Part shown: positions 12,161-29,479 of the stretch, piece by piece
Position numbering within the stretch: position 1 is the stretch's first letter
Layout: each line of letters begins with the position of its first letter
Assembly: GCA_020060385.1 (NCBI GenBank)
Contig: JAGVAH010000157.1
Coordinates: forward strand, 4,586-68,585
Direction of reading: 5' to 3'
DNA length: 64,000 nt
Source of the DNA: Syntrophobacterales bacterium
Lineage (GTDB): Bacteria > Desulfobacterota > Desulfobaccia > Desulfobaccales > 0-14-0-80-60-11
Program-made: the position numbers and the translations under genes
The notes under the pieces: model-generated
The model's database searches: none
The model's input: the letters and a program-made list of their open reading frames with translations, nothing else
Told to the model about the DNA's origin: nothing

Positions 12161-12280
12161 AGCCCATTCTTCGGATCGCGATTCCGTTAATAGTCTTATA
12201 TCTGCATCTTCCCGGTTCAGTGATAAGAGAAGAGTTTGGCAAGTAAGCAACTATTTTCCTTTTGCTTTGTGATTGACCAT

Positions 12281-13442: not shown

Positions 13443-13802
13443 TAACCATATTTCGGTGGACCGTTCCCAACCAACTGACAACTTTTCCTGCAACTGTCCA
13501 ACAAGGAGCTCAAGTGCAAGAGGCCAAAATCCGGTCTGGCAGGCGCTGCAAAAGGTTGGCTCAAAAGGTTGTCTCCTCCGCAAACTTCCGCTTCACTGAT
13601 GCAGCCGGTTTAGTCATCGTCTGACCTGAGCGATAACGGGCCCGGTTACTGCCTGGCCCCCCTTCTCCTTCTCTCCAGCCAGACCATCCAAGCCCAAGCT
13701 TAACCCGCAGCCTGCCCTGAAGGATCGGGGAAAGGGCGGGGAATAAAGCCCAGCGGCGTTTACCTCCTTCCTTGGCATCTTTGACCAGGAGGTTTGACAG
13801 CC

Positions 13803-16800
13803 ATGGCCGAGGGTGGTTCTCCCGGTACCATTTTGGAAGCCTCGATCTCTGGGGTGCCTGCGGATCTGCGCCAGTGGCGCCTTATCAAAGGGGACCCGGA
13901 GGTTTTCGGAGTCTGGCTGGGGGATAGCTTCTATCCCCTGGCCCGGAGGGAGAATCTTGGCCTGGGCTTCCAGGAAGGCCTTCTGGGAGCCGGTTATGCC
14001 GCGGCCTGGAGGGATCGATCGGACTGCCTGGAACACCTGCCGCACCCTTTAGCCGACTTTTTCCGCCGGCAACCGGAGCGCTCCCAATTTTATCTGGTCT
14101 CCCGGAACTTGCCCGGAAATGCTGGACAGCCGGTGCCGTTGTTCACCCTGGCCAAAACGGACAGGGGCCAGGCAGTGGTTCTGGAACTCAATCCGGACTT
14201 CGCAGACCGCCGGGAGATCTATCTGGCCCTGGCTGTTTATAGCCTGGTCCAGGCCAACACCCCTTACCTCCACCACCGCTTCGATGCCCATGGGGATTTC
14301 CAGCGCCTGGGGGCCTTTTCCCAGGTAGAGCGCCACAGCACTGAGATGTCCAGGAAACACCTGGGCCAACGCATCTATTTCGAGGCAGAGGGCTGCACCC
14401 ACTGCCTCAAGTGCGCCGCCTCCTGCAGCGAAATGCAGGTGAGGCTGACCTCCGGGGGCTTAACGGTCCTGGGTCCGGCAGAAGATTATTGTACCGTCTG
14501 CCGCCTCTGCCTGGCGCATTGCCCGTATCTAAAGGATGTGCGTAAAGAAGACCTGACCCCGGACCGCCAGGCTGCACCTGCCGCCCACTTCACCGGGGGC
14601 GCCGCCGTCTATCTGACCCGGGAGGCGGCCCGGGAAGCCCAGGCCTGGTTTCAGGGGTTGGCCGCATCCCCAGGGCGTGGAGGCGATTGGCGGATTTCCC
14701 TGCTTTATCAAGGAGCCTCCTGGCAGGAAGGGGAGCCACCGGGACCGGAAATCCGGCAGTATTCCCTTCAGGAGCAAAGGCCCGGGAGTCCTTACAAACC
14801 TTTGCTGATTACGGCACATATCTCACCCCAGGGGGGGACCGCACCACCCTTGCTGATTCTCCGCTTGCTGAGCCGGGTGGCGGTCTTTCTCACCAGCGCT
14901 GCGGGGGAGATCGAGGCCGAACTGCTGCGAGGCGTAGACTCAATGGGGGTCCTCTACCAGGGGGTGGTGGATGGAGAAAAATTTGGCAGCCCCGGGGACA
15001 TGCCCCTGGCGTCCAAACTCCATCGCCTCCACCGGCTGGCCCCGGACGCGGATTTGGCGGCTTTGGTCACCGCCGGGCAAGTGGATGTGGTGTTGACCCC
15101 GACCCTGGAGGCCTTGCCGGCGCCGGTTTCCTCCTATTTCCTGGAAGCCACCGGCAACCTGGCCCACCTCCTGGCTCCCCAGATCTTTCAGGCCTTCACC
15201 TTCAGCCCGGAGCCTCTCCTCCATGAGATCCGGGAACTCTGTCTGGAGGTTTTTCCCCGCTATCCGCAACTCCTGGCCGCAGAAGCAGAACGGGCCCGGA
15301 CCTACCTGGCCGATTTGCCCCGCTATGGCCCGGAGATCCACGCCCGCTATCGTACCTGGGGCATGGCCCCGGGCCACAGCGCCTGCCCCACCTGCGCGGA
15401 ATTGCAAACCCTGGCGGTGCCCCTCTATATGGCCATGCTCCTCTCCCTGTCCCGGGGGCAGGTTCCCCAGGTGACCTTCACCTGCGAAACCGGGTGCATG
15501 AGCGAGACCCTCAATAAGGTTAAAGAAGTGGCCCAAAAAGTGAAAGGGGGCCGCACCGTGTTTGGGGGTGGCTTCGCGTTCGGGGAAGCCGCGGCCATGT
15601 CCGAGGAGTGGGCCATGGCCCGGGGCGTCTTGCCCCAGGGTCGGCGCTACGTGGTGAGCCAGAGCGGGGATGGCGGCGCGGTCATCGGGCTGCCAGCTTG
15701 GCTCAACGCCCTGCGGCAGCGGTCCTTCCTCATCAAGGATCGGGAGGCCCAGGTACTGCATTTTATCAATGTCACCGATACCCAGGTCTATTCCAACACC
15801 GGGGGAGAGAGTTCGGCCACCTCCATGCTGGGCATGAGCACCCTCACCACCCCCCTGGGGCGCTTCCTGGTGGGCAATCAGCGCATCCAGTGGCAACTCA
15901 TCAACCTGGCCGCGGAATTTCCCGGGGTTCTGGTGGGGAGCGGGCATTCGGCCCATAAGGATCTGATGCAGGAATTCTGGGCGGAAGCCGACCGCCTGGG
16001 GCGTTCCGCTATCCGTTGGGATGTCACCCCCTGTCCGGAAACCGGTAAATTCTTCGGGGAAGATCCGGATCGTTTGGCCCGGATTATGGCCTATGCCGGG
16101 TTCCTCCCGGAGGTGGTATTTGTGGGCCGCTTGCGCAAACGGGTGGCTCCCATCAATCCCCGGGATCGCCACAAGAACTGGCGGGAATGGACCTCGGAGC
16201 CCCAGCCCATTTATTACTGGCTTGCCCAAGATCCCCGTTACCGTCCCTTGATCCGCCGGGACCTGGTGAGCGGCCACTGGGAGCCCATCAATCCCGCAGT
16301 CAGGGCCATCATCGCCCAGTTGGAGAGTTTCCGGGATGGCCTCAATCGTCAGATCGACCTGGAAAACCGCCTGGTCCGGGAGGCGGAGGAATATACCGCC
16401 GAATTTTTCCGGCATCTCCAGGCCGAATGGCAGAGACATCGCTACGTCCCGGAAGAGTTTCCCTATCATTTCCTGTTCAATGACCAGGGGGAACTGAAAC
16501 CTGAGTTCGGCCCGGCCTTGCCCCGGGATTTCCTGGAGGCGGTTTTGGGTCTGGATTACGTGAGGCAGTATGTGGTGGCCCGGGACGAACAGATGACCGG
16601 GGAGGTCCAGACCCTGCAAACTCCGGGTCCGGCTGCACAAGCAATCCCGCCGGACGGCGGCGAAGGGTTACCGCCCCCTGACCCCGTGGTAGCCATGGGG
16701 ACCACGGCTACCAGCTACGAGTCCGTGGCCGCGGCCCGGCAGGCGGAATTCCAGCGCCTGCTGGATCGCCTCCTGGACGACCGGGCCCTGGCCAAGCAGG

Positions 16801-19800
16801 CCCAGATTTCCCAGTATATTTTAGGGAAAGAGTTGGCCAGGGATTTCCAGGCTCAGGGAGGCATCTTTACCCGGGCTCCGGGGAGAGGAGCGGACCTGGC
16901 CCCGGCCCGCCGGGAGTTTCGCGATAGCCTCGCCGCGTTGGGGGAATTTGCCTTGGGCGTGGCCTCCCTGGCCGGGGAACGGGGCATCGCCCTCAACCGT
17001 CTGTTCTCCCAGTATTTCACCGGCAAAGGGGCCTGGGCCGGCATGGCCTGGCAGTTCGGGTCTTCCAAACGGGGCACCCCGGTTTTTTCCGCGACTTTTA
17101 TCTCCCACCGTCCCATCCAGCGCCAGGACGCGCTGTTGCGTTTTCCCTTTTACGTGCTCACCGTCACCAACTACGGGGATTTGAAATCCCAGCCGGATTT
17201 GTTTTACGACCACCTCCACCCCCAGGGTTATCTCATTATCAATACCCCCCGGACCCCGGCCGCCATTCACCAGGAATTGCTGGCCGGCTATGACGACCAC
17301 ACCCGCCAGGGGGTGGCCCGGGCCCAGGATGCGCCCCGGGGCGAGGCCCGGGAAGCGGTGAGCCAATGGTTGTTTGAAGTTCCCTATAACGCCCTGAACC
17401 GGGAGCAGCTGGATCAGGTTACCAAAGTCCTGGCCCTGGCCCAGGCCCGGGTGATCACCACCGACCTGGACGGGATTATGGCCCAGGTGACCGGCAGCAG
17501 CCGGGCGGTTTCCAATCTGGTGGCGGTGGCCCCCATGATGCGGGCCCTGGAGCTTTTGGGCATGCCGGTGAGCTTTGAGGCCGACTTGCCGGCCCTGACC
17601 GCGGGCTTTCCCGGGGCGGTGAAAAAAAATAAGCAGCTGACCGAGCAATATTTGACGGCCATGGGGCGGGCCTATCAGGAGTCCCAGGGATTTAGCGACG
17701 CCCCGCCGCAGCTCCCCCCCCATCCCGGGGGACCGTCCCCGGACCCGGGGGACTATTATCTGGAGATGGGGGGCACCCTGGCGGGCCAGGTCCTGAGCCA
17801 GCTGGCCACCAGGGACCACCCCTTATTTTATATCGGTTTTCCCATCACCCCCGCGGGCAACCCCTTTTATGCCATGGCCCAGGCCTATGCCAACGGCCAC
17901 CCCTATATCATGGTGGACGAAAACAATCCCTCGGAGAAGGTGGCCGCGGAAAAGCTGCTGGGGGTGGCCCGCACCGGCGGCGCCCTGCCGGTGACCTTCA
18001 CCGCCTCCCAGGGTTGGCGGCTCTTTGCGGAAATCATGCCCCAACTGGTGGGGGCTCGCCTCGAATGCCTCTTCATCCTGGCCAAACGGGCCCTGGCCGC
18101 GCCAGCCCTGAACATCGAGGAGAGCCATACGGATTTCATGACCTTCCGGGATGACGGGGCCATTATGCTCTCCCCCAAAGACATCCAGGAATTCGTCCCC
18201 TGCCTCTATCTGGCCCGGTTGCTGACGCATTTTGCCCGGCTGCCGGTGGTGGCCTCCCTGGGGGGCATCACCGATACCCACAAAATCAGCCTGGTCAAGG
18301 TTCCTCCGGACCAAGAGGTCCAGGCCTGGCTGGCCCGGGCCCTGGCGGAGGTGGATTTCCTGGAAGATAAGCTGCTGAATCGCCAGGGGGAGGTGATTGT
18401 CCACGGTCCCAGCGCCACCGGGGAAGTCTATCAGGAAACTCAATCGGCAGTGGAGAAGGCCCATGCCCTGGTGCCTCGGGTCTTCCCGTATGCGGCCCGC
18501 CTGGTGGAGGAATTGACGGGCTACCGCTTCCAGGAACTGGAAGTCGCGGCCACGGCCCCGGGGGAACCCCTGACCACCGGGCTGGTCCTCACCGGCTCTT
18601 TCTATCCCAACGCACAGGAGGCCATTGCCGAACTGGCCCAGGAGGGCTGGGGGGAGCTGGGGGCCATTTCCGTCAGGCTGTTCAATCCCTTTCCGGAAGA
18701 GGCCCTGGCTGAGATATTGTCCGGGGCCAAGCTGGTGACCATCATAGACCGCTCCAACAGTTTCGGCAGCGTGCCGCCTCTGGCCAGCCGGGTGATCACG
18801 GCCCTGGCCCGCGCCCGTAAAGGGCTGCCGCCCCTCTTTCGCGTCCTGGTGGGCGGCCTGGGGGGACGGGAGATCACCGTGCCCGAACTCAAAGAAATCA
18901 TCAAGTTCAGCCATCTGTGCCTGGCGCCCCGGCCCCAGGTAAAGCCGGGGCTCAGGCAGCGCCTCCTGGAGGGGGACCTGTTGCTCCAGGGATTACTGGC
19001 AGAACGGGCGGCCCTGGAAGCCAGGAGTCTGCAGCGGCATACGCGGCTCCCAGCCGCGGCCCGGTCCGAGGCCCAGGCCCCGGGAGCGCTTGCGGCCACC
19101 CGGGAAAGACTGGCCCAGGCCCTCATCCGGGGAGATTACCTCTCCGCCCTGGCCAATTACGGCTCCGTGGAGTTCGTCAATCCCCAGGAAGTTTGGGAGG
19201 AGACCCGGCTCCTCAAGAAGTTGATCATCCGCCTGGAGATGCTGCTGGCCCGGGAACTCATCAGCCAGGGACAGGCCGACTGGCGGGCAGCGGCAACACT
19301 CCTGGAATACGGGGTGCAGCCCGGAGATTTTGCCTTGGCGGTGCGCGGCCTTAATTCCCTGATCACCGCCGCGCCGGCCCCTGCGGCCTGGACTCTTTAT
19401 CGACTGGGTGAAGCCTACGGTCATAAATTCAGGCCCAGGGGCCTGACCTTAAGGGCACCGGTGGGGCCGCCTCCGGCGCCTCTGCCCCCGTCTGCGGCTC
19501 CAGAAATTGAGGAGCCGGCGCCACCGTTGGGCGCGGCCAGGCCCGAAGTTCCCTTTTCCCCCGCGGAGGCGGCTATTTTAGAGAAGGTCATGCGCGCCCT
19601 GATTGGGGAAAGCGCCCAACGGGAAACCCTGCGCAATCCCCTTGACCTGGAGCGGGAGACCCTGGATATCCTGGCCCGTGACCCGGCCTCCCAGCTTTTT
19701 GGCCGGGCCGATGGGGCCATCCGCCGGGCCTATCAGGAGGTGTATACCGGGGTCATCGACCGGACCCTGGCCGAGGGCATCCTGGGGCAACACTATGCCC

Positions 19801-20087
19801 CGGAGCTCAGGGAAATCTTTGCCGGCGAGGGGCTGCGGGCCCTGGAGCTGATGGCCCAGGCCACGGTGGCCTATTTTGCTCGGGGCCATGGGGAAGGGCC
19901 CCCTGACCGGGTAGAAGTGCAGCGACAGGCGGCTGGGGCAGTGGAACGTTACCTCCGGGAAGAGGTTTACCCCCGGTACCGCCGGACGCCGGGGTTTTAC
20001 CATGACTATTACCGGGCCTGGGTGGCGCCGGACCTGAAAGAGGCCATTGTCAGGGAAGTGGCGGCGATTAACTGGAAAACCCCATAA
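13803..20087 (+). CDS. Giant (about 2,095 aa) domain-permuted 2-oxoacid:ferredoxin oxidoreductase-like fusion protein
   Basis: ORF track 13794 (TTG); ATG 13803 is more likely (AGGAGG upstream). Numbering from 13794. Ferredoxin motifs: C201-x2-C-x2-C-x3-C and C233-x2-C-x2-C-x3-CP. PFOR TPP-binding module: ACPTC..TCETGC, SGDGGAVIG..NVTDTQVYSNTGGESSATS, TPCPE. Gamma/POR-like module: FGSSKRGTPVFSATFISHRPIQ. PFOR domain I: IGFPITPAGN, NPSEKVAAE, TFTASQGW, ESHTDFM. PFOR domain II: SVRLFNPFPEE, IIDRSNSFGS. Long unassigned N-terminal, internal and C-terminal stretches. Confidence 0.8.
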   Translation: MAEGGSPGTILEASISGVPADLRQWRLIKGDPEVFGVWLGDSFYPLARRENLGLGFQEGLLGAGYAAAWRDRSDCLEHLPHPLADFFRRQPERSQFYLVSRNLPGNAGQPVPLFTLAKTDRGQAVVLELNPDFADRREIYLALAVYSLVQANTPYLHHRFDAHGDFQRLGAFSQVERHSTEMSRKHLGQRIYFEAEGCTHCLKCAASCSEMQVRLTSGGLTVLGPAEDYCTVCRLCLAHCPYLKDVRKEDLTPDRQAAPAAHFTGGAAVYLTREAAREAQAWFQGLAASPGRGGDWRISLLYQGASWQEGEPPGPEIRQYSLQEQRPGSPYKPLLITAHISPQGGTAPPLLILRLLSRVAVFLTSAAGEIEAELLRGVDSMGVLYQGVVDGEKFGSPGDMPLASKLHRLHRLAPDADLAALVTAGQVDVVLTPTLEALPAPVSSYFLEATGNLAHLLAPQIFQAFTFSPEPLLHEIRELCLEVFPRYPQLLAAEAERARTYLADLPRYGPEIHARYRTWGMAPGHSACPTCAELQTLAVPLYMAMLLSLSRGQVPQVTFTCETGCMSETLNKVKEVAQKVKGGRTVFGGGFAFGEAAAMSEEWAMARGVLPQGRRYVVSQSGDGGAVIGLPAWLNALRQRSFLIKDREAQVLHFINVTDTQVYSNTGGESSATSMLGMSTLTTPLGRFLVGNQRIQWQLINLAAEFPGVLVGSGHSAHKDLMQEFWAEADRLGRSAIRWDVTPCPETGKFFGEDPDRLARIMAYAGFLPEVVFVGRLRKRVAPINPRDRHKNWREWTSEPQPIYYWLAQDPRYRPLIRRDLVSGHWEPINPAVRAIIAQLESFRDGLNRQIDLENRLVREAEEYTAEFFRHLQAEWQRHRYVPEEFPYHFLFNDQGELKPEFGPALPRDFLEAVLGLDYVRQYVVARDEQMTGEVQTLQTPGPAAQAIPPDGGEGLPPPDPVVAMGTTATSYESVAAARQAEFQRLLDRLLDDRALAKQAQISQYILGKELARDFQAQGGIFTRAPGRGADLAPARREFRDSLAALGEFALGVASLAGERGIALNRLFSQYFTGKGAWAGMAWQFGSSKRGTPVFSATFISHRPIQRQDALLRFPFYVLTVTNYGDLKSQPDLFYDHLHPQGYLIINTPRTPAAIHQELLAGYDDHTRQGVARAQDAPRGEAREAVSQWLFEVPYNALNREQLDQVTKVLALAQARVITTDLDGIMAQVTGSSRAVSNLVAVAPMMRALELLGMPVSFEADLPALTAGFPGAVKKNKQLTEQYLTAMGRAYQESQGFSDAPPQLPPHPGGPSPDPGDYYLEMGGTLAGQVLSQLATRDHPLFYIGFPITPAGNPFYAMAQAYANGHPYIMVDENNPSEKVAAEKLLGVARTGGALPVTFTASQGWRLFAEIMPQLVGARLECLFILAKRALAAPALNIEESHTDFMTFRDDGAIMLSPKDIQEFVPCLYLARLLTHFARLPVVASLGGITDTHKISLVKVPPDQEVQAWLARALAEVDFLEDKLLNRQGEVIVHGPSATGEVYQETQSAVEKAHALVPRVFPYAARLVEELTGYRFQELEVAATAPGEPLTTGLVLTGSFYPNAQEAIAELAQEGWGELGAISVRLFNPFPEEALAEILSGAKLVTIIDRSNSFGSVPPLASRVITALARARKGLPPLFRVLVGGLGGREITVPELKEIIKFSHLCLAPRPQVKPGLRQRLLEGDLLLQGLLAERAALEARSLQRHTRLPAAARSEAQAPGALAATRERLAQALIRGDYLSALANYGSVEFVNPQEVWEETRLLKKLIIRLEMLLARELISQGQADWRAAATLLEYGVQPGDFALAVRGLNSLITAAPAPAAWTLYRLGEAYGHKFRPRGLTLRAPVGPPPAPLPPSAAPEIEEPAPPLGAARPEVPFSPAEAAILEKVMRALIGESAQRETLRNPLDLERETLDILARDPASQLFGRADGAIRRAYQEVYTGVIDRTLAEGILGQHYAPELREIFAGEGLRALELMAQATVAYFARGHGEGPPDRVEVQRQAAGAVERYLREEVYPRYRRTPGFYHDYYRAWVAPDLKEAIVREVAAINWKTP

Positions 20088-20090
20088 GGT

Positions 20091-23000
20091 TTGGAGGAAG
20101 TTTTGGCATCGCATCCCCGGAGCGGGGTTTCTGAAACTGTCGGGGCAGGCCCCTGGGGGGACCTGCGTCCCCGGGTTTATAAAGCGATTCGGGCCGCGGC
20201 CGCGGAGCCGGCAGCCCCGGCGGACCGCCGCGCATTGCTGGAACACTGGCTGAGCCCCTTATTCCAGGAGGATACCCGCGAACTTAGCTTCCCGGAGGAA
20301 TTGGCCCAAGATCAGCAAGCCTTGTTTCAGGGCGGCCTGCAGCGAGCCGTCAACCGTTGCCGCGGCTACGCCGGGGCCTGGTTTGCCTGGGAGTCCCTGG
20401 ACCCGGAAGCCCTGGCCCGGGAAGTGAAGCAGGCGGTCAGGAGGGTGGCCCGGGAAGATGAGATGGCCCAGTCTCTGATTGAGGGGCAGGATCTCCAGGC
20501 AGAGGAAATCCCCCGGCTCCGGAAATATAGGTTGCGGCAGCGCTGGTGCGGCGGTGGGGAGGCTGCCGACGCCTTCCGGGTGGAAGAGTGGCTCCAGGAT
20601 GTGGCCTTTTTTAACCGGGAATTAATGGAGATCGGCAGTTGGGCCCGTTTATTCCATACCGTCGCCTTGCTCCATGGGGAGGGGATAAAGGCACCGGAAC
20701 TGAGGCGGCAGGCCCTGCTCTCGGTTCAGGAAAAAGTCATTAAGGGACAACCCCTGGAGTCCCTTGGGGAAGTGGTCATTTATTTGGAGGGCCGGGTAAG
20801 GGCCGGGGAATATGCGACCTCCGGGGAGAGCCTGGCCCCGCCCCTGGAGCCTGGGCTGTTTCCCGGCGAGCCTCAGGATGTCTGCCTGCTGCTGCGGCTG
20901 GGGCTGGTTTTCCTGGTCACCGGGGGCAGGCGGCCCGAACATCGGCAGCGCCTGGACTGGTTGGCAAAGCACCAGGACCTTAACGACCTGCGCGATTTAT
21001 TTCTCTTATTCCTGGCAGCCCTCCAGGGGCAAGACCCCCTGCCGCCCCCCTCGGCGGTGCTGGACCAGCTCCAGCGTCAGGGCTACCCCATTCACCACCA
21101 GGATTCCAGTTACGCCTACCGGGCCTTCATGGTGCCTCTGGAAGATTTGCCCGGCGTCTTGGAGGTAAGCCTCAGTTGGCCCCTGGACCCCGGGGCCCTC
21201 ACCGGAGATCCGGAACGAGACTTAAGCCTGGGTCGGGACCAGGGAGAAAGGCAGGGCCTCTGGCTCCAGGCCTTTAAAGAAGAGGCCCTGGCCTATTGTC
21301 GGGGCCGGGTGAAGCCGCTGCCTTACGCCGAGCTTATCCGCCCCGCGGCCCGGTTTGCCGCGGCTTGGCTGGCGGCTAGACAGTGTCGGGAGGGGAAAGC
21401 GCTGGATCTGCCAGCCCAGGTCCAAGAAGGGGTGAACCTCCTGCCGCCAGCCCTCTTGAAGCTCATTAGGCCTCGCAAGGGCTACGAACTGTCCCACCGC
21501 AGTCAACTGGAAAGATTGCTGCAGCAGGAATTCCAGGCCTACCACCAGGTCCTCTACCGGTGTCGCGGTGGCGGCTGCCTGGCCAATAAGGCTGATGAGG
21601 GCCGCTTCTTCCATCTGGCCGCGGCCCTGGCGCTGGCGTGCCGCCAGAGTGACTTAATGGCCTTGGGTCCGGAAGAGGTGACGGGATTGGAAGTGGCGGA
21701 AGTCTTGGACCATCTCCAGGAATTGGCCGCCACCCTTTCCCTGGACCTGGAACCTGCGGCCGCGCCCTACTGGCATGAATTCAAGGATTGGCTTAAGGAG
21801 AAGCTGGATTGGCCTTCCCTGGCGGGAGAGGCAGAAGACCCCGGTGGACTCCCGGTCAACTGGAAGTCTGAGGCGGATACCCTTTTCCAGGAACTGGCTG
21901 GGCAGCTTTACCGTTTGGTGGTGGCCAAGGCCCGGGCCGAGGGGGGGCTGCCTCTTCTTAAGGGGGACCGCCATCTGCTTGCCTGGCTGGCAGACTGGCT
22001 GACTCCGGAAAGGCGCGCCCTCCTTAAAGCCTCCGGCGCCCAGCTACTCAACACCATTAAGGCCCAAGCCCGGCAAGCGGTGTGGGAATCCTACCCCTTG
22101 CTGCTGGAGAGCAGGGAAGAACTGCTGGCCCTGAGCAAGTATTATCTGGGGGTGGAACTCAAGGGCCGGGATTTGGAGACCTATGCCCGGACCCAGCCGC
22201 TGGGGGACTTGGCCCCAAAAGTGGCGGCGGCTCTCCAGAGATGCCACATTCCTCCGGAAATTGCCGGTCCCGGCGGGGTGGAAGCGGTTATCCAAGAAGT
22301 GCTGCGGCCCCGAACCCTGGAGGCCACTGCGGCCCAACGGCAACTGGAGGAAAAGGTCCTGGCCCTTCTGCCCCGGACCGATTGCGGCTCCTGCGGCAGC
22401 CCGGGTTGCCTGGCTTTTGCACGACTGCTGGTCCAGGGCCGGGCCCAACCGAGCCAATGCCCCACCTCCCCCGCGGCCACCAAGGCGCGGCTGACCGGGA
22501 TTCTCGGGGCGACGCCCGCGGCGGCTCCGGAGCCTTATGTCCTCAGGCCCGGGGAAATCCCCCTGCTCACCTGCCTGTTAGACCCATATTTCGTGGCCCT
22601 GCGACAGCGGCTGGCCCAGGAATTGGACGCGGGTGAGCGGGAGAGGATTATCCCCTTTAAAAAGCGGGGGATTTCCATTCTGCAAATCGGCAAAAGTCCC
22701 GATGCCGCTGCCTTTCACAGGTATTTAGAGGATTATTTGGGCTCCGACGCGGCCAATCGCCTGAGCCGCAGCGACCGGGCCTTTCTGGCGGATTACGGCG
22801 ACTTGAGACTGGCTGCCGCCACCCGGGAGCTGGAAGATGAATTTTCCTGGGCCGCGTATGAGACCCGGATCAATCTCTCGAAATTCGCCCTGGCGGAAAG
22901 AGACCTGGCCCGGGGGGCCGCGGCCCATTATGACCGCTGCTTCTTTCTTTCAGACTTGTCTATTACGGACCGGACCCGGGTGCAGGAATTCCGCCGTCAA

Positions 23001-24941
23001 CGCTTCCTGTGCGATTTTTTGGAGGATTGGGAGCAAAGCTTGACGGAACTCTGGCAGGCTGGGTCCCGCATCGAAGATTGGCAGGACTTCTCCCATATTG
23101 TGGCTAAATCTTACTGGCATCAGGAATTCACCCCGGCCCCGAAAGAAATCATGCAGGCCTTGGGGCGGGCGATCCGGGAGCCCCTGCCCGCCTGGGGCCT
23201 ATCCTGGGGGGAAAGGCTGGTGCAGGAGCAGTGGCACGCCCTGGAAAGCGAAAAGTCACATCTGGCTGAACTACTCAGACGGCGACGGGTGGAAACTCCC
23301 GCAGACCTGGACCTTCTTGTCCGCGGCTTGGTGAACCGGGCCTGGCAGGATCTGACCGCCGGAACGCCGGCCCCGGGTCTGCCCCGTCCCGACCCGGTGC
23401 TGCAGATCAGCCGGAACGCCTTTAAGCAACTGGACCAGGCCAATCTCCACATGGCCGGGGACCTCAGGATGCATTGGGATGAACTCTCCGGGCGGGTCCG
23501 GGAGATTCTGGGCGCAGATACCCAGGTGGCGCCGGAGGAATTGGCCCGCCTGCAAGCCAGCGCCGCCGGCCTGGCCTGGCGAGAGATGTCCTCTTTGGGG
23601 AGGGCCTGGATCGAGGCCCAAATAACGGCCGCGGCGGAACGTCTCCTCTTGGAAGAAGTTGAGGTGGACCGTTTTCTTAAGGGGGATCTGCCTTTCCCCA
23701 GTCCCCGGACTCTGCGCCGGGCAGTCTGCCGGCTGTATGCGGCCGGCAAAAAAGGCCTTCACCACCTCCTGGAGGCCCTACACACGGCTATGCAGGCCTA
23801 TCCCCAAGGGTGGCAGGCGCTGGGAGAGGCGGCCCTGTTCCAGCTTATCTGGGCGCGTCTGGCCACCGGGCGATTCAGATTCACGGAGCCCGGGGCCGAT
23901 AACCTGGTGCGCAAGGTGGACCGCCTGCTCCGGGCCCAGGTGAGCAAGGACGTGCATAAGCTGAAGGCCTACATGTTTCTGTTGGCGAAGATGGAGGGCA
24001 ACCTGGATAAGCTCACGGCCCTGCTCCGGGAAATCCGGGAGACCTCGGATATTATCGAAGCCGCCTGGCTGGACTTTACCAAAGAACGCCTGGCTCTGCG
24101 CCGTTCCCCTCATCCTGAGGCGGCAGAGGGCCAAAAAGCGCCCTTGCTGCTGGCCCGCCTTGACCCGGCGCGGCTGAACCGTTACCTGGAAGAGGGTCTG
24201 CCCCGGGGGGAACCCCGGGAATGTAGCCGGGCCTATGAGGAACTGACCACCATCTTGGAATTCTATGTGGTCTCCGCGGCCCCCCAAGATTCTCCCCAGG
24301 AGATCTTCCAGCACCTGCAAGGGGGCTGCTACGATTTTACCGGGATTTCCCCCCAATCCTTATTGAAGACTTTACAGGTCCTCCACCAGCAGCGGGATCG
24401 CCTCCTGCCCCGCAAAATCAGCATTTGCACCTACGTCCTGGGCCATCGCCTGGCTGGCGCGGAACCACATCTGGCCCAGAGCGAAGCCGACTTTCTCAAT
24501 GAGAAGAAGGCCTTTCTGAAATCCGAGGCTTTGCCAGCGGAACTCCGCAAGGGACAACTGGCGGGCAACTGGGGGGTAGAGCTGGGAAAAATCAGAAATG
24601 CCCTCTACCTGCAAGTCTCTGATCTGCTGGAACAGGAACGCACGGAAAGTTTTGCCAACCGCATCGGCCAGATCATTGAGCGCCTGGAAGAAGAATACGC
24701 GGCCACCGTGGAGGCGTTCCAAAAGGGTGAGTTTAACCGCCGCACCGCTTTTTATATTTTCCGGCGCTTCCAGAAGGATCAGAATGAACTGTCGGGCGCG
24801 GATTTGGGACGTTTTCTCAAGCGGCACCAACCGGAAACCCTGGCGCAACTCCGGAGCCGGTTGGCGCCCCTGGTGGTGGCCGAGGTGGAGGGGCAGCTGG
24901 AAAAGATCTTATCCAAGTATCAGGGGGCGTTGTTGGGCTAG
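20091..24941 (+). CDS. Giant (1,616 aa) helical protein with a single RnfB/CFeSP-type [4Fe-4S] motif; function unknown
   Basis: Starts 3 nt after the ORF A stop (TTG 20091, or TTG 20103 with GGAGG 5 nt upstream). The only recognisable motif is LLPRTDCGSCGSPGCLAFARLLVQGRAQPSQCP, i.e. C765-x2-C-x4-C-x16-C790 (nt 22383-22460). The remainder is Leu/Ala/Glu/Arg-rich with uniform coding-like composition. Confidence 0.75.
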   Translation: MEEVLASHPRSGVSETVGAGPWGDLRPRVYKAIRAAAAEPAAPADRRALLEHWLSPLFQEDTRELSFPEELAQDQQALFQGGLQRAVNRCRGYAGAWFAWESLDPEALAREVKQAVRRVAREDEMAQSLIEGQDLQAEEIPRLRKYRLRQRWCGGGEAADAFRVEEWLQDVAFFNRELMEIGSWARLFHTVALLHGEGIKAPELRRQALLSVQEKVIKGQPLESLGEVVIYLEGRVRAGEYATSGESLAPPLEPGLFPGEPQDVCLLLRLGLVFLVTGGRRPEHRQRLDWLAKHQDLNDLRDLFLLFLAALQGQDPLPPPSAVLDQLQRQGYPIHHQDSSYAYRAFMVPLEDLPGVLEVSLSWPLDPGALTGDPERDLSLGRDQGERQGLWLQAFKEEALAYCRGRVKPLPYAELIRPAARFAAAWLAARQCREGKALDLPAQVQEGVNLLPPALLKLIRPRKGYELSHRSQLERLLQQEFQAYHQVLYRCRGGGCLANKADEGRFFHLAAALALACRQSDLMALGPEEVTGLEVAEVLDHLQELAATLSLDLEPAAAPYWHEFKDWLKEKLDWPSLAGEAEDPGGLPVNWKSEADTLFQELAGQLYRLVVAKARAEGGLPLLKGDRHLLAWLADWLTPERRALLKASGAQLLNTIKAQARQAVWESYPLLLESREELLALSKYYLGVELKGRDLETYARTQPLGDLAPKVAAALQRCHIPPEIAGPGGVEAVIQEVLRPRTLEATAAQRQLEEKVLALLPRTDCGSCGSPGCLAFARLLVQGRAQPSQCPTSPAATKARLTGILGATPAAAPEPYVLRPGEIPLLTCLLDPYFVALRQRLAQELDAGERERIIPFKKRGISILQIGKSPDAAAFHRYLEDYLGSDAANRLSRSDRAFLADYGDLRLAAATRELEDEFSWAAYETRINLSKFALAERDLARGAAAHYDRCFFLSDLSITDRTRVQEFRRQRFLCDFLEDWEQSLTELWQAGSRIEDWQDFSHIVAKSYWHQEFTPAPKEIMQALGRAIREPLPAWGLSWGERLVQEQWHALESEKSHLAELLRRRRVETPADLDLLVRGLVNRAWQDLTAGTPAPGLPRPDPVLQISRNAFKQLDQANLHMAGDLRMHWDELSGRVREILGADTQVAPEELARLQASAAGLAWREMSSLGRAWIEAQITAAAERLLLEEVEVDRFLKGDLPFPSPRTLRRAVCRLYAAGKKGLHHLLEALHTAMQAYPQGWQALGEAALFQLIWARLATGRFRFTEPGADNLVRKVDRLLRAQVSKDVHKLKAYMFLLAKMEGNLDKLTALLREIRETSDIIEAAWLDFTKERLALRRSPHPEAAEGQKAPLLLARLDPARLNRYLEEGLPRGEPRECSRAYEELTTILEFYVVSAAPQDSPQEIFQHLQGGCYDFTGISPQSLLKTLQVLHQQRDRLLPRKISICTYVLGHRLAGAEPHLAQSEADFLNEKKAFLKSEALPAELRKGQLAGNWGVELGKIRNALYLQVSDLLEQERTESFANRIGQIIERLEEEYAATVEAFQKGEFNRRTAFYIFRRFQKDQNELSGADLGRFLKRHQPETLAQLRSRLAPLVVAEVEGQLEKILSKYQGALLG

Positions 24942-25000
24942 GGGCGTCGTCCCGGAGGCGGCGGTCCTTGCCGGCCTGGGCCCTGGTTTAAGGAGCGCCC

Positions 25001-28000
25001 ATGGGTGCACAAATCCTGGAGATGCGGCTGAGTCCCGGCTGTCAGGAGGAAGCAGCCGGGGAATATGATCTGCGCCCGGACCTCACCCCGGAAGCGGCCG
25101 CAAAAGAATTGCCTCCGGCGGCGCGCCGGGTTTTAGCGCCGGTGGCGGCCGCGTTCGCGGCCCTGCATCGGGGTTTGGTGGAAGATTTGCCACTGACCGG
25201 CATCCGCAAGGTTCGCCTTTTCCAGAACCTGGGCGCCGCGGCGCGTTTGGCCCGGAGCCAGGAACCTGGGGCCGCCACCGCCGAAGTAGCGCTGGCCGCC
25301 CTGGGGGCCGGGCCGCAGTGGGTTTCATTGCTGGCTGACCTGCTGCGGGCCGCGGCCCTATATCCGGGGGTGCGGGATACCCGGCTGCCCCGGCGTTTCG
25401 CGCCCCTGGCCCGGATGGTGGCCCCCTTGCGCCACCTCCTGGAAAAGATCCGGGAAAGGGTTCAGCGCCAGCCTCGATTTGCCTCCCAGATTATGGGGCC
25501 CCTGGAAGCTGATGACTCCCAGCGGCTGGTTGACCCCTGGGGGCAGACCCGCCTGCTGCTCCAGCGTTTCCTATGCCGGCAGGACTGGCGGGAACGGGAT
25601 GTGCTGCACCTGATGCTGGATTTCCTCCAGGGGAGCCCTAACCTTTACGGGGAGCGCCTCCTGAACCTCTGGTTTTCCTTGAAGCGCCTGCAAGATGAGG
25701 AGCCCGCGGCCTATACCCGGATGGTGGCCGCGCTCATCAACGAAGGACGGGCCTATCTGGGAGAGCTCCCCCGCTGGCGCCACCTCTGCGGGATGGGGGA
25801 AACCGGGGGAACAGGGGCCTGGGAAGGGGCTGACACCTTCCGGGTCATCCAGGGCATGGCCGGGCTCCTGGGAGTACCCCCGGAGGATCTTCCGGCTCTT
25901 TCCGCCGCAACTGGCGCGGCGGGGATTGACTGGGACACCCTCAAGGCCGCAGCCTTACAAACAGGAGGCGGGTTCTCCCCCTTAAAACCCTTGGAGAGGG
26001 CTTCTCTCTTCCTGGCCGCGGAGCTGTTCCCCGAAAATTTGGGCCATCGGGCCTTTCTGCGCTTCCTCTTGGAAAACGAAGAGCCTTACCGGCAGTTGCT
26101 GGCCACCTGCTACAGCTCATTGGAAACGCAAGAGGCCCAGCTTGCCAGGATTTTAACCGCGTTTAACGGGCACCCGGCCAATATCGAAAAACGGGTGCAT
26201 TACCGCCAGAGTGAGGCGGCCCAGTTGCTGCGGGTCTTCTTTTTGCGGCCCGATCCGGTGGAGGCCATCATTGACCGGGAGCGGAAAAAAGACATCTATT
26301 ACCGCCTCCCCGGGTTGCCAGGCCAGGCCCTGCTCCCCCAGGTGCTCCACGAATGCCAAAGCATCTTCCAGTACCTCACGCAGGAGGCCCTGAAACGGGT
26401 GGCCGCGGGTTTAGGGGTCGATCCTGCCGAGATTGGCCGGGTCATCGCCTCCTACAAGGAGTTTACGGTGGATCCCACCGGCCAGCACCTCCTTTATGTC
26501 TGCAAGGGCACCGCCTGCTTTCTGAGGGGCCAGCCCCACCTTTCCCAGGCCCTGGCCACCCGCCTGGGAGTGGAGGAAGGCCGGGTTTCCCCGGAGGGGG
26601 TGCAATTCTTTGAGCGGGATTGTTTTGGCACCTGTCATCTGGCCCCGGTGATCAAGGTGGGCCACACCTTTGTTGCCGCCTTGAGGCCGGAGGTAATCCC
26701 GCCCTTGATCGGCAAGCTCCTCAAGGGCCGCTCCTTCGCCAATCGCTCCGATTTCTTCAAGGCCGTTCGGGATAGCCTGGCGGAAGAAGATCAGGTGGTC
26801 CTGAGCCACTCTTGCCCCGTCCAGGGGGCCTGCGGGCTGGAGGTCACCCCGGAGCAATTAGAGGGCCTGGCCATTAACGGCCTGGGGGAGATCCGGGCCT
26901 GGCCGGAAAAGAAAGTCCTGGGAACCCTGGCGGAACGGAGCTACTCCTTCAGTTTTATGGATCCGTCTGGCAGCCGGCAATACGGCACCCTCATTACCGA
27001 TGCCGACGACTTTCTCCTGGGGGTGGTCAATGTCCCGGACCCCCGGGTGCAAAAGGGATTGGCGCGCACCCTGCGGCCCCGGGTAGTGCTTAAGGACCAT
27101 TACGTCCATTTGGAGGGACGCCCTCAGCCCCTGGGGGCCTATCACTCCAACAGCATCGCCTTGGGGAAGCCGGACGGCACCTACGGCAGCCTGGTCTTTG
27201 GGGAAGAGAACCTCCAGTCTCCCCCGGAAGAGACCTGTGGCTTGACCCCGGGTTTCCAGCGTCCGGTCCCCCCGGAATTTTTCCGGCGGCAAGACCGGCT
27301 CCTCCTGGGGTTTGTGGAGGGAGTGAACCCGGAATCCATCGATTCTTATCTGGAAAAGGGCGGCTACCAGGCCTTGAAAAAGGTTCTGGGTTACGGTCAG
27401 CCGGAGAAGAGCTGGCCGCCGGCAACCATCGTCCAGGAGATCATGGCCGCCAATCTCCGGGGCCGGGGGGGCGCGGGCTTCCCCACCGGCGTCAAGTGGG
27501 AGGCCATGCTTCAGGCTCGTCCCGAATCGCGGGCAGGAGACGAGGTGGACCTGCCTCTGAAGTTAATGGTGGCTAACGGTGACGAAGGCGACCCCGGCGC
27601 CTTTATGGACCGCACCTTGATCCAGGAACGGCCCCATCAGGTTCTGGAAGGGATGCTCATCGCCGCCCTGGCCACCGGCTGCCGCTATGGCGTCATCTAT
27701 GTCCGCAAGGAATACGAAGATGCGGTGCAGCGCCTGGAAAACGCCGTCTTTGAGGCCCGGCGCTACGGTTTCCTGGGGCGGCAGGTAATGGAAGTGGCGG
27801 ATTTCGACTTCGATGTGGAAATCCGCTTGGGTGCCGGGGCTTTTGTGGCCGGGGAAAAACGGGCCATTATGCGGGCCATCGCCGGCAAGCCCGCGGAGCC
27901 CGATCTTCAGGCGGTCTCCAATGTCAAGGGGGGACTGTGGGGCAAGCCCACCCTGCTGAACAACGTGGAAACCTTTGCCAATGTGCCTTTGATTATCAGC

Positions 28001-28936
28001 CGGGGCGGCGCCTGGTTCCGGGACCGGGGATACGGGGCCAGCGGCGGCAGCAAGATCTTTTCCGTGGCCGGGATTGTCAACCACACCGGCCTGGTGGAGG
28101 TGCGGTTCGGCCGCACCTTCAGGGACGTGCTGCAGATCGCCGGGGGCGTCCAGGAGGGGAAAAGGCTCGCTGGCGTCCAGATCGGCGGTCCCTCGGGGGC
28201 CATCCTCTCTTTGACCGGAGTCCGGGCCTACCTCCTGGATGCCCCCCTGGATTTCGATGTCTTCAACCGGGTGGGGGCCATGCTAGGTTCCGGCGGCCTG
28301 GTTTTCCTGGGGGAGGACGATGACGTGGTGCGGTTGGCCCGTCATTTTACCTCTTGGCTGGCCGCGGAATCCTGCGGCCAATGCCCCAGTTGCCTGAACG
28401 GCCTCGTCTCCCTGGGGGCCACCCTGGACCGCATCCTCAAAGGGGAGGGCGCCAGCCTGGATATCCACACCCTGTGGGGCAAAGCCGATATCATCCGGGC
28501 CGGCTCCCGGTGCGGATTGGGGCAGACAGCCCCCAACCCCGTGACCAGTTCCCTCAGATTCTTCCCGGTTTCCTATCTCCATTACCTTTTGGATAACCCC
28601 CGGATCGATGCCCCGGAGCTTTTCCTCAGCCTGGAGGCCTTACATCTCCTTACCCGGGGGGAGACCGCGCTCTCCACCGCCGCGCCTGGGCGCGTCTCCT
28701 TCTACCTGAAAAAGGGTTTGATCCGGTTCATCTTTGAGGAATTGACCAAACTGGACCGCTTTCGGCCGGGGACGGACAACCGCCCGGGCCGTTTCTTGAA
28801 ATTGCTCAACCTTACCCCGAACCAGGTGGGTTGGCGGGGCGTGCAGATGGAATATTCCCGGGAAACCATGGCCCAACATCCTTACCTCATGGTGGGGGCC
28901 TCAGGGGCAGGGGCAAAGGCGGAGTCCCGGGCTTAA
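25001..28936 (+). CDS. Giant (1,311 aa) NuoE-NuoF fusion flavoprotein (NAD(P)H/FMN/[2Fe-2S]/[4Fe-4S] module) with a ~480-aa unknown N-terminal region
   Basis: AAGGAG 8 nt upstream of the ATG. NuoE-type motif: C501-x4-C506..C541-x3-C545 (VCKGTACFLRG..CFGTCHLAP). NuoF-type motifs: NPESIDSYLEKGGYQALKKVL, LRGRGGAGFPTGVKW, NGDEGDPGAFMDR, GAGAFVAGEKRA, SLBB-like VEVRFGRTFRDVLQIAGG, and N3 cluster ESC1125GQCPSC-x39-C1171GLGQTAPNP. Confidence 0.85.
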   Translation: MGAQILEMRLSPGCQEEAAGEYDLRPDLTPEAAAKELPPAARRVLAPVAAAFAALHRGLVEDLPLTGIRKVRLFQNLGAAARLARSQEPGAATAEVALAALGAGPQWVSLLADLLRAAALYPGVRDTRLPRRFAPLARMVAPLRHLLEKIRERVQRQPRFASQIMGPLEADDSQRLVDPWGQTRLLLQRFLCRQDWRERDVLHLMLDFLQGSPNLYGERLLNLWFSLKRLQDEEPAAYTRMVAALINEGRAYLGELPRWRHLCGMGETGGTGAWEGADTFRVIQGMAGLLGVPPEDLPALSAATGAAGIDWDTLKAAALQTGGGFSPLKPLERASLFLAAELFPENLGHRAFLRFLLENEEPYRQLLATCYSSLETQEAQLARILTAFNGHPANIEKRVHYRQSEAAQLLRVFFLRPDPVEAIIDRERKKDIYYRLPGLPGQALLPQVLHECQSIFQYLTQEALKRVAAGLGVDPAEIGRVIASYKEFTVDPTGQHLLYVCKGTACFLRGQPHLSQALATRLGVEEGRVSPEGVQFFERDCFGTCHLAPVIKVGHTFVAALRPEVIPPLIGKLLKGRSFANRSDFFKAVRDSLAEEDQVVLSHSCPVQGACGLEVTPEQLEGLAINGLGEIRAWPEKKVLGTLAERSYSFSFMDPSGSRQYGTLITDADDFLLGVVNVPDPRVQKGLARTLRPRVVLKDHYVHLEGRPQPLGAYHSNSIALGKPDGTYGSLVFGEENLQSPPEETCGLTPGFQRPVPPEFFRRQDRLLLGFVEGVNPESIDSYLEKGGYQALKKVLGYGQPEKSWPPATIVQEIMAANLRGRGGAGFPTGVKWEAMLQARPESRAGDEVDLPLKLMVANGDEGDPGAFMDRTLIQERPHQVLEGMLIAALATGCRYGVIYVRKEYEDAVQRLENAVFEARRYGFLGRQVMEVADFDFDVEIRLGAGAFVAGEKRAIMRAIAGKPAEPDLQAVSNVKGGLWGKPTLLNNVETFANVPLIISRGGAWFRDRGYGASGGSKIFSVAGIVNHTGLVEVRFGRTFRDVLQIAGGVQEGKRLAGVQIGGPSGAILSLTGVRAYLLDAPLDFDVFNRVGAMLGSGGLVFLGEDDDVVRLARHFTSWLAAESCGQCPSCLNGLVSLGATLDRILKGEGASLDIHTLWGKADIIRAGSRCGLGQTAPNPVTSSLRFFPVSYLHYLLDNPRIDAPELFLSLEALHLLTRGETALSTAAPGRVSFYLKKGLIRFIFEELTKLDRFRPGTDNRPGRFLKLLNLTPNQVGWRGVQMEYSRETMAQHPYLMVGASGAGAKAESRA

Positions 28937-29317: not shown

Positions 29318-29479
29318 CCAGTATATGAGGTACAGAGGTGTCTTAATTTCAGGACTGTCTCTCCGGCAAATCCTTTCCAGAAAAGACTGGCCCTGCCTGG
29401 CAGACATCGAAATTTACCGCGGCTCCCAAAACTTCCCATCTCCCAACCATATCAACGCCTCTTTGGTTCCCCTTGCTCC

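Follow-up and report, generated by a model that had tools for sequence, protein, structure and literature searches.

A fused NuoE/NuoF-type flavoprotein as a candidate NAD(P)-reducing subunit of a three-protein 2-oxoacid oxidoreductase

A stretch of 64,000 nucleotides from a Syntrophobacterales bacterium (contig JAGVAH010000157.1, positions 4,586 to 68,585; hereafter the window) encodes a 2-oxoacid oxidoreductase (ORF A), a protein with a single iron-sulfur domain (ORF B) and a NuoEF-like flavoprotein (ORF C). The locus raises the question of what the flavoprotein contributes, and whether the encoded complex bifurcates electrons or simply transfers them. ORF C (25001–28936, stop codon included; all features described here lie on the + strand) is a single ATG-start open frame of 1311 aa with a good ribosome-binding site, the Shine-Dalgarno sequence AAGGAG (24982–24987) lying 5 nt ahead of the ATG. 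Its whole architecture is kept in ~70 protein clusters from Desulfobacca, Syntrophobacteraceae and Desulfobacterales, at 45–100% identity, which confirms that it is a genuine gene and not a chance ORF. The long chain could instead be an annotation or assembly artefact produced by mis-joining, or else an inactive scaffold with a decayed nucleotide site, an explanation that we consider extremely improbable. In two long-read MAG loci (L014 and L017) ORF C is split at the insert/NuoF junction, but both of these MAGs also carry ORF A in pieces, so the splits are likely frameshift errors. Moreover, over 60 independent clusters retain a single chain of 1217–1330 aa, the frame offers no ATG between codons 287 and 652, and fusions to the upstream genes exist, all of which argues against the N-terminus being a separate gene, a possibility that the initial annotation had raised.

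The protein comprises, in order, an N-terminal region, a NuoE-like module, a beta-rich insert, a NuoF-like module and a tail. Pfam domains confirm that NuoE and NuoF lie in one chain, as first proposed, while three parts match nothing known: residues 1–446, 573–760 and 1195–1311 gave no Pfam match even at E ≤ 10. Thirty orthologues all carry the same eight cysteines (C501/C506/C541/C545 and C1125/C1128/C1131/C1171). These are the only conserved cysteines, their residue and nucleotide positions had been given correctly at the outset, and all are assigned to clusters equivalent to C1 and B1 of the bifurcating BfuC and BfuB subunits. No transmembrane segments were found in ORFs B and C.

The NuoE/HoxE/BfuC-like module (residues 447–572; 26339–26716) consists of an N-terminal helical bundle and a thioredoxin-like [2Fe-2S] domain, with the ligands C501, C506, C541 and C545 in a Cx4Cx34-35Cx3C arrangement. 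It is covered by Pfam 2Fe-2S_thioredx (PF01257) at 447–572 (1e-26; profile positions 17–143 of 145), and matches the NCBIfam models nuoE_fam (7e-21) and HoxE (1e-20). As residues 447–495 form the helical part of this module, the unassigned N-terminus is ~445 residues long and not the 480 of the initial annotation, which was nevertheless right to call it helical and unassigned.

Within this N-terminal region we distinguish a small alpha/beta lobe (residues 1–111; 25001–25333), which is variable and absent from Syntrophobacteraceae-type orthologues, from a conserved, all-helical and family-specific domain (residues 112–446; 25334–26338) with the invariant motifs DTRLP, DWRERD, E248, EKASL, YRxLL, NxxP and RPD..RE..K..Y. 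AF2 models the domain confidently, with a mean pLDDT of 91 for residues 1–445 and pLDDT ~85–95 over residues 112–446 in a model of residues 112–1311. A search of 1.84 billion representatives with the domain returned 14 matches, all from the same family; Foldseek found nothing similar in PDB or BFVD, and there was no PDB profile match and no Pfam match. The composition of residues 1–445 (L 16%, A 14%, R 10%) does resemble that of ORF B, as had been remarked. Remote homology to ORF B or to the ORF A tail, which had been put forward for checking, was not detected; HHalign probabilities against ORF B were at most 3.8%, so the likeness to that protein is compositional only.

The beta-rich insert (residues 573–760; 26717–27280), earlier described as a beta-looking segment of ~190 aa, is 188 aa long and is modelled by AF2 with high confidence as ~14 strands. 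Its conserved positions (G629, G641, P693, V702 and G712) are structural only. The alpha/beta tail (residues 1195–1311; 28583–28933) has 117 residues, none of them cysteine, and stands where BfuB has its ferredoxin domain. The idea that the tail and insert derive by decay from the ferredoxin or thioredoxin-like domains of BfuB was rejected, as HHalign gave a probability of 0.1% both for the tail aligned with the BfuB C-terminus and for the insert aligned with the N-terminal domain of BfuB. Most likely, the helical N-terminal domain, the insert and the tail would serve in assembly with ORFs A and B or in docking to them.

The NuoF/BfuB-like FMN and NAD(P)H module spans residues 761–1194 (27281–28582). 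The NuoF-like match begins at around residue 760, with RQDRLLLG from residue 763 (nt 27287), in agreement with the start at nt ~27290 first proposed. Pfam places Complex1_51K (PF01512) at 815–996 (5e-39), a weak SLBB match at 1020–1061 and NADH_4Fe-4S (PF10589) at 1112–1192 (1.5e-19), and the CxxCxxC...C ligands of an N3/B1-type [4Fe-4S] cluster (C1125, C1128, C1131 and C1171) lie in a C-terminal helical bundle. The FMN-binding glycine loop RGRGGAGFPTG (residues 820–830; 27458–27490) is intact, and invariant in 63 sequences. The BfuB-type Rossmann loop NGDEGDPGAFMDR (residues 859–871; 27575–27613), a G-D-E-G-D-P-G variant, is invariant in the ORF C family and carries the A and M of GAFMDR, which are Bfu-specific residues (PMC9304861). 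The GDEGDPG variant has also been noted in the NADP-specific HytB and in T. kivui HydB (PMC9431212). With GAGAF intact as well, we see no disruption of the FMN or NAD(P)H glycine motifs, which the initial annotation had named as grounds for abandoning its assignment.

The adenosine-binding residues, unlike the glycine loops, are systematically replaced, which had been overlooked. In the remodelled pocket (residues 944–974; 27830–27922), GAGAFVAGEKR stands for GAGAFVCGEET and A-V-S-N for P-P-F-P, so that the canonical NADH pocket is absent; all family members have GEKR...A(V/P/I)SN, as opposed to GEET...PPFPA in non-family proteins. Residue 970 is Q in the window and K in most of the family, and K953 corresponds to E183 of E. 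coli NuoF, which is the second Glu of GEET. This Glu binds the ribose hydroxyls, and the Phe of PPFP stacks on adenine; mutagenesis of E183 was reportedly carried out by Morina in 2011. The invariance of GEKR and A-V-S-N at pocket positions indicates a divergent NuoF module with a probably altered nucleotide specificity. Judging from the sequence, the invariant exchange of the adenosine-ribose-binding Glu for Lys-Arg and the replacement of PPFP may signal a preference for NADP(H) over NAD(H), a proposal to which we give even chances. Against it, the BfuB of the A. mobile Wor-Bfu (9mqx_B) reads GESS...KYIHAT although its structure was determined with NADH, and residues 945–972 are just where AF2 confidence is low. 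That the pocket residues are unlike those of all characterised NuoF proteins is also what would be expected of a decayed site, but the FMN and cluster ligands never vary in the family, and the altered pocket is itself invariant across 45% identity, which points to selection rather than decay.

The proteins encoded upstream suggest what the module may be working with. ORF A (13794–20087; 2097 aa) is a fused 2-oxoacid:ferredoxin oxidoreductase (OFOR) in delta-beta-gamma-alpha order, with ~1200 aa outside assigned domains, Pfam matches to POR_N (6e-30) and PFOR_II (1e-12), and weak NCBIfam matches to the PadG and PadI models. It keeps the thiamine-PP (TPP) motif GDGG...DTQVYSNTGGESS, and PFOR T31, E64 and R114 have their equivalents in its FPITPA, PSEK and AKRAL segments, so that the TPP-binding GDG...N, the TPP-activating Glu and the substrate-carboxylate Thr and Arg are all found. 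Motif content therefore predicts a giant OFOR that is catalytically intact. ORF B (20091–24941; 1616 aa) has one assignable part, an RnfB-type [4Fe-4S] domain whose ligands (C765, C768, C773 and C790) are its only conserved cysteines, and presumably forms a bridge between ORFs A and C. Together the three chains amount to 5,024 residues, ~70% of them with no assigned function, which could hold further sites.

The synteny A-B-C is seen in ~20 genomes from several orders, with ORF C always following ORFs A and B, and the system appears to be confined to some sulfate-reducing and syntrophic bacteria. Natural fusions of B+C (P0074, 2980 aa, FeS at 758–788) and of A+B+C in the same order (P0077, 7473 aa) indicate that the three proteins act together. 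A further open frame, in L008, is at least 2419 aa long, runs off its contig end and joins ORF B to the N-terminal part of ORF C. Many enzymes reuse NuoEF-type modules, and ORF C might be an independent NAD(P)H:acceptor diaphorase whose only tie to A and B is a common operon, feeding instead an unlinked enzyme such as a hydrogenase, a formate dehydrogenase or a heterodisulfide reductase. The fixed gene order across orders and the single-chain fusions make this very unlikely, as do the restriction of the N-terminal domain to this one protein context and the finding of no hydrogenase, formate dehydrogenase or NuoG-like genes near ORF C.

Does such a system bifurcate? The best sequence match of the NuoF module is the BfuB/HydB protein 7q4v_B (1e-113, versus 7e-81 for Nqo1), and its top sequence and structure matches are all bifurcating BfuB subunits; with 9bov_B it shares 44% identity, at an rmsd of 3.1 Å over 440 columns. 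In common with BfuB/BfuC (HydB/HydC, NfnB/NfnC), ORF C has the FMN loop, GDPGAFMDR, the B1 [4Fe-4S] cluster and a NuoE-type [2Fe-2S] cluster equivalent to C1. It differs from them in fusing C and B in cis with the insert between, in adding the N-terminal domain and tail, in its GEKR/AVSN pocket and in having no BfuA partner (no NuoG/BfuA homologue was found in the operon or flanks). It also lacks the B2 site, the thioredoxin-like domain with B5 and the C-terminal 2x[4Fe-4S] domain with B3 and B4: the ferredoxin motif CxxCxxCxxxC occurs in no member of the ORF C family, whereas control BfuB proteins in the same scan had two each. The absence of the last of these domains, and its relevance to bifurcation, had been proposed initially, and both points hold. 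Non-bifurcating homologues lack the BfuB clusters B2–B5 (PMC9304861), and the low-potential path to Fd runs from C1 to B3/B4 (PMC12018979). The cofactor set of ORF C is that of non-bifurcating relatives.

The closeness to BfuB and the retained GAFMDR mean that a Bfu-like mechanism with other partners has to be considered. ORF C would then belong to a new bifurcating or confurcating enzyme, analogous to Por-Bfu, with its FMN, [4Fe-4S] and tethered [2Fe-2S] clusters as the flavobicluster and a low-potential branch that starts at the [2Fe-2S] domain and leads to ORF B or the OFOR delta clusters, in place of B3/B4; 2-oxoacid synthesis driven from NAD(P)H and a second redox partner would be one example. 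The minimal flavobicluster, FMN with B1 and C1 (PMC12018979), is all present in ORF C, and the insert after the [2Fe-2S] domain could permit or control movement. It can also be argued that syntrophs and sulfate reducers are energy-limited, and that for them it would be unattractive to waste energy by letting NAD(P)+ oxidise a −500 mV donor directly. A Por-Bfu class has been predicted (Schut et al. 2022, PMC9304861) for Dehalococcoides and for syntrophic Proteobacteria. With it the A-B-C system shares the concept of a pyruvate/2-oxoacid oxidoreductase that is encoded next to a NuoEF-like flavoprotein and would be wired to it. However, the predicted Por-Bfu consists of seven subunits of ordinary size, BfuA and a BfuB with its ferredoxin domain among them, whereas we find an OFOR gene but no BfuA, and three giant chains of which one carries a BfuB-like module minus B2–B5 and another, ORF B, is a novel single-cluster protein. 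As all true Bfu enzymes are considered to contain B2–B5, as no BfuA subunit or third-substrate module is recognisable, and as the tail and insert are not degenerate BfuB domains, we judge bifurcation unlikely here.

Non-bifurcating relatives offer other comparisons. HoxF (5xf9), from soluble NAD+-reducing [NiFe]-hydrogenase, and FdsB, from NAD-dependent formate dehydrogenase, are likewise single-chain NuoE-like/NuoF fusions, and the superposition of HoxF and the AF2 model of ORF C covers 774 columns (TM 0.81 of target). Unlike ORF C, they have a short linker, no 445-aa N-terminal domain, no tail, a canonical GEET pocket and, as partner, a NuoG-like HoxU or FdsA. With complex I NuoE/NuoF (Nqo2/Nqo1), ORF C shares the folds and the cofactors FMN, N3 [4Fe-4S] and N1a [2Fe-2S], but identity is only 31–36%, NCBIfam scores fall below the equivalog cut-offs (e.g. 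341 vs 559 bits for nuoF_fam), and ORF C is soluble, fused and different in its pocket, with no other nuo genes nearby. Pyruvate:NADP+ oxidoreductase (PNO) of Euglena and Cryptosporidium and the NADH-dependent phenylglyoxylate dehydrogenase PadEFGHI pass electrons from an OFOR to pyridine nucleotide via an attached flavoprotein and not via free ferredoxin, which equals the net chemistry that we propose for the A-B-C system. The flavoprotein is unrelated, being a cytochrome-P450-reductase-type FMN/FAD domain in PNO and an FAD/NAD subunit in Pad, whereas in the ORF C family it is a module of the NuoEF type.

Overall, the lack of B2–B5 and of any other ferredoxin-docking module in the operon makes a linear, non-bifurcating wire the simplest reading. 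On balance we slightly favour a soluble 2-oxoacid:NAD(P)+ oxidoreductase made up of the three proteins ORF A, ORF B and ORF C, with ORF C as the subunit that reduces NAD(P)+. Electrons from the 2-oxoacid would enter at the thiamine-PP site of ORF A and pass through its three [4Fe-4S] clusters to the single cluster of ORF B, which would stand in for the missing NuoG/BfuA subunit. From there they would move via the [4Fe-4S] cluster of ORF C to FMN and reduce NAD(P)+, the [2Fe-2S] cluster probably lying off the path, as N1a does in complex I. If this is true, ORF C links a giant 2-oxoacid-oxidising enzyme to NAD(P).

ORF C lies at window positions 25001..28936 (+) as one 1311-codon frame with an ATG start, and an AAGGAG sequence stands 5 nt upstream of that ATG. 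Pfam places a 2Fe-2S_thioredx domain at residues 447-572, Complex1_51K at 815-996, a weak SLBB match at 1020-1061 and NADH_4Fe-4S at 1112-1192, so the NuoE and NuoF modules do share a single chain, as the initial annotation had proposed. The NCBIfam models nuoF_fam (8e-102) and nuoE_fam/HoxE (~1e-20) also match, all below their equivalog cut-offs. The only cysteines conserved across the family are C501/C506/C541/C545 and C1125/C1128/C1131/C1171, the same eight that had been picked out by eye, with correct nucleotide coordinates. The unassigned N-terminus, previously put at ~480 residues, shortens to ~445, since the NuoE module takes in residues 447-495 as its helical part. Residues 1-446, 573-760 and 1195-1311 gave no Pfam match at E<=10, within a scan of nine unassigned segments that came out empty throughout, and neither did the corresponding parts of 31 orthologues scanned one at a time. 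NCBI labels family proteins only as "NAD(P)H-dependent oxidoreductase subunit E" or "NADH:ubiquinone oxidoreductase chain F", and our literature search found no paper on the family. The original observation is real and its interpretation is supported: judged by its sequence, ORF C is a strongly elaborated NuoEF/BfuBC-type flavoprotein serving a 2-oxoacid:ferredoxin oxidoreductase (OFOR), and its family is one of taxonomically restricted giant enzymes.

It had been considered that the N-terminal region might be a separate, mis-joined gene. No ATG lies between residues 287 and 652, and the same full-length architecture recurs in 24 clusters at 62-100% identity and in one at 48% (a search of 5.8 billion proteins); with this 48% distant member as query, we found ~45 more clusters of 1217-1317 aa. 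The region also models well, with a pLDDT of ~85-95 over residues 112-446 in an AlphaFold2 model of residues 112-1311. On these results ORF C is a single, real gene. In two loci from long-read metagenome-assembled genomes (MAGs), L014 and L017, ORF C is split, and reading the parts as separate genes was rejected; we attribute the split to frameshift errors, since ORF A is likewise fragmented there.

The N-terminal 445 residues are modelled with a mean pLDDT of 91 and a pTM of 0.90, as a small alpha/beta lobe (residues 1-111) followed by an all-helical domain. The lobe is absent from Syntrophobacteraceae-type ORF C proteins, and the helical domain carries the invariant charged motifs DTRLP, DWRERD, EKASL and RPD..RE..K..Y. 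In Foldseek searches the N-terminal model had no neighbour among PDB and BFVD entries (best E 1.6 and 1.2, TM ~0.1), and profile searches of the PDB, run with alignments of the N-terminus and of the insert, returned only spurious matches to designed proteins, RCC1 and kinases (E>=0.005). The resemblance to ORF B noted in the initial annotation holds for composition and fails for homology, whether to ORF B or to the ORF A tail: in an all-against-all HHalign comparison of family alignments, the N-terminus, insert and tail of ORF C matched the ORF B segments and the ORF A insert and tail with a best probability of 3.8%. The insert, which had been described as beta-looking, has ~14 strands in the AlphaFold2 model, and its conserved residues are only glycines, one proline and hydrophobics, which speaks for a role in structure or docking. 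Nor is the insert a decayed thioredoxin-like domain of BfuB, or the tail a decayed BfuB ferredoxin domain: both ideas were rejected (HHalign probability <=0.1%).

ORF C closes a unit of three genes. The first, ORF A (13794..20087, (+), 2097 aa), is a fused OFOR in which the TPP motif and the counterparts of PFOR T31, E64 and R114 are retained. Its domains run delta-beta-gamma-alpha, unlike those of single-chain PFOR (alpha-gamma-delta-beta), and ~1200 of its residues are without domain assignment, the larger stretches being 1-190, 260-520, 750-1060 and 1705-2097. ORF B (20091..24941, (+), 1616 aa) has an RnfB-type [4Fe-4S] domain as its sole assigned domain, and the four cysteines of this domain are its only conserved ones. 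One ORF B helix, AKMEGNLDKLTALLREIRETSDIIEAAWLDFTKER (residues 1299-1333, window 23985-24089), is nearly invariant among orthologues that are otherwise 25-28% identical, and is a candidate functional or interface site. Counted by Pfam domain spans, ~70% of the 5,024 residues of A, B and C are without assignment, and no membrane segments are predicted in ORF B or ORF C. On L001 (934-5783), a JGI metagenome contig with an identical ORF C, ORF B is split by a frameshift near residue 1304; as ORF B is intact in the window, the gene call on that contig is wrong.

Scanning one genome per GTDB species, we see the A-B-C order in ~20 genomes. The closest are Desulfobacca MAGs (70% and 62%), and others include Desulfacinum infernum, D. 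hydrothermale, Desulfosoma, Desulforhabdus, Desulfoferrobacter suflitae, Syntrophobacteraceae MAGs and Desulfobacterales MAGs. A, B and C are respectively 46-51%, 25-28% and ~47% identical to those of the window. No NuoG/BfuA, hydrogenase or formate dehydrogenase gene lies near the cluster. An exhaustive HMMER search of 1.84 billion representatives with the N-terminal domain profile recovered only 14 proteins, all of the ORF C family. The genes also occur fused. P0074 (2980 aa) joins ORF B to ORF C, with the FeS domain at 758-788 and NuoE/NuoF past residue 2109; in locus L008, ORF B continues into the N-terminal part of ORF C within one frame that is open for at least 2419 aa and is cut off by the contig end; and P0077 (GCA_041643115.1, L057 6001-28422) carries A, then B, then C in one uninterrupted frame of 7473 aa. 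The B+C and A+B+C fusions are strong comparative evidence that the three proteins form a single complex. P0077 additionally has ~660 extra residues at its C-terminus and an extra N-terminal region of 860 aa, which opens with a hydrophobic, signal-peptide-like segment (residues 5-25); a 2045-aa PPDK/PEP-utilizer protein is encoded downstream of it.

The NuoF module finds its best sequence matches in HydB/BfuB of bifurcating enzymes (1e-113 to 1e-102), with FdsB and Nqo1 behind them (~1e-81), and Foldseek aligns it with 9bov_B at 44% identity and an rmsd of 3.1 Å. The GDPGAFMDR signature, called Bfu-specific by Schut et al. (PMC9304861), is kept across the ORF C family. We confirmed that the C-terminal 2x[4Fe-4S] domain is missing: the tail holds no BfuB ferredoxin remnant, and the CxxCxxCxxxC motif occurs zero times in every family member, versus twice in control BfuB proteins of other loci. 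The module thus reads as a stripped member of the BfuB lineage. That this loss bears on bifurcation, as the initial annotation held, agrees with published work, in which the non-bifurcating homologues are exactly those without B2-B5 (PMC9304861) and the low-potential route to ferredoxin runs from C1 to B3/B4 (PMC12018979). The ORF C model also superposes (774 columns, TM 0.81 of target) on HoxF, the subunit of a non-bifurcating hydrogenase in which NuoE-like and NuoF parts are naturally fused. This match suggests that the NuoE and NuoF modules adopt their canonical arrangement and that the insert loops out.

A plausible reading of the cofactor count across A, B and C is a single electron wire. 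Electrons from the 2-oxoacid would pass from TPP to the beta-domain [4Fe-4S] and the two delta-domain [4Fe-4S] clusters, then to the ORF B [4Fe-4S], the ORF C [4Fe-4S], FMN and finally NAD(P)+, with the ORF C [2Fe-2S] cluster lying off the path. The chain order in the fusions agrees with this path. Such a complex would transfer electrons without bifurcating them, and its new domains would act as scaffold. The cofactor sites, how well they are conserved, the synteny and the fusions are established by the data, while the transfer order, the lack of bifurcation, the nucleotide preference and the scaffold role are inferred. The main rival is a Bfu-like coupling in which other clusters take the place of B3/B4; in view of the missing clusters we give it a low probability, though a real one because the NuoF module derives from bifurcating ancestors and the bulk of the complex is uncharacterised.

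The ORF C glycine loops are intact, and not disrupted as had been considered. The residues that hold adenosine in complex I are replaced: GEET, at E. coli NuoF 181-184 and canonical in NuoF/BfuB, is GEKR in the ORF C family, and the adenine-stacking PPFPA is A-(V/P/I)-S-N. Both replacements are invariant in all family members and absent in all non-family NuoF/BfuB proteins fetched. The second Glu of GEET is E183 (numbering from 7awt_F), which Morina et al. in 2011 reportedly found to bind the ribose hydroxyls and exclude NADPH, its mutation raising NADPH use ~200-fold. ORF C also has the GDEGDPG loop variant noted in NADP-specific HytB and T. kivui HydB (PMC9431212). T. kivui HydB contacts NADP+ via Phe205 and Arg340 (PMC10021017), and, judged from the phmmer match read without gaps, Arg340 would fall on ORF C S973. 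Against an NADP reading, the BfuB of A. mobile Wor-Bfu has GESS...KYIHAT yet was solved with NADH. On balance, we judge a preference of the family for NADP(H) to be an even call. In nine Desulfohalobiaceae / Desulfovermiculus MAG loci (L039, L041-L048), ordinary BfuB-type proteins have GEGT...PPRST instead of GEET...PPFPA, a natural variation at the E. coli NuoF E183 position, akin to the engineered E183G, that may mark another nucleotide-specificity change.

No terminator-like or promoter-like site follows ORF C. An ORF at 29016-29720 (+) (234 aa) was rejected as a fourth operon gene and is probably not a gene, as its translation is low-complexity and implausible, with no Pfam match and no homologue in related loci; next comes a DUF116 gene (window 29480-30382, (-)). 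Nor is this ORF the GAF-domain protein (~190 aa) whose gene immediately follows that of the ORF C orthologue in 13 of 17 related loci (L002 13809-14378; L004 5713-6831, a double GAF; 11 further loci), which has no tblastn match in the window and may serve as a ligand-sensing regulator or belong to the complex as an additional subunit. Three distant genomes have genes of PEP or pyruvate metabolism within 1-10 kb of the cluster: a GTP-PEPCK in the window (38438-40291) and PPDK-like genes at L002 21969-23684 and L057 29690-34422. These neighbours hint, weakly, at pyruvate as the OFOR substrate. On the other side of the cluster, a c-di-GMP-I riboswitch (RF01051, window 12745-12830 (-), 56 bits, E 3e-8) sits upstream of a minus-strand ORF (11510..12250, 246 aa) that has no Pfam match.

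With ~5,000 residues in total, and a single 7,473-residue chain in one lineage, A+B+C might conceivably represent an unrecognised class of self-scaffolded redox mega-enzyme, in which an NADP-specific, BfuB-derived flavin site provides a new energy coupling to a TPP 2-oxoacid site; we regard this as improbable. Bifurcation or confurcation could then proceed via the tethered [2Fe-2S] and the OFOR/ORF B clusters, replacing B3/B4, and the ORF C N-terminal domain and the ORF B 1299-1333 helix would be functional sites, not passive scaffold, engaged in gating, ligand binding or handling of a third substrate.

The family holds at least one confidently modelled domain of 330-445 residues without a match in the searchable PDB/BFVD libraries. 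For NAD/NADP selectivity, its GEKR pocket is a natural counterpart to complex I engineered at E183, and a BfuB-lineage flavoprotein lacking the clusters that bifurcation is believed to require offers a natural way to ask which components of the Bfu core are indispensable to that process. The cultured hosts Desulfacinum infernum, D. hydrothermale, Desulfosoma caldarium and Desulfoferrobacter suflitae allow direct tests. Electron flow among 2-oxoacids, ferredoxin and pyridine nucleotides sets the energy yield and carbon assimilation of anaerobes at the thermodynamic limit, and the ORF C family would be the third independently built direct coupling of an OFOR to NAD(P), after the eukaryotic pyruvate:NADP+ oxidoreductase (PNO) and the phenylglyoxylate dehydrogenase (Pad) enzyme.
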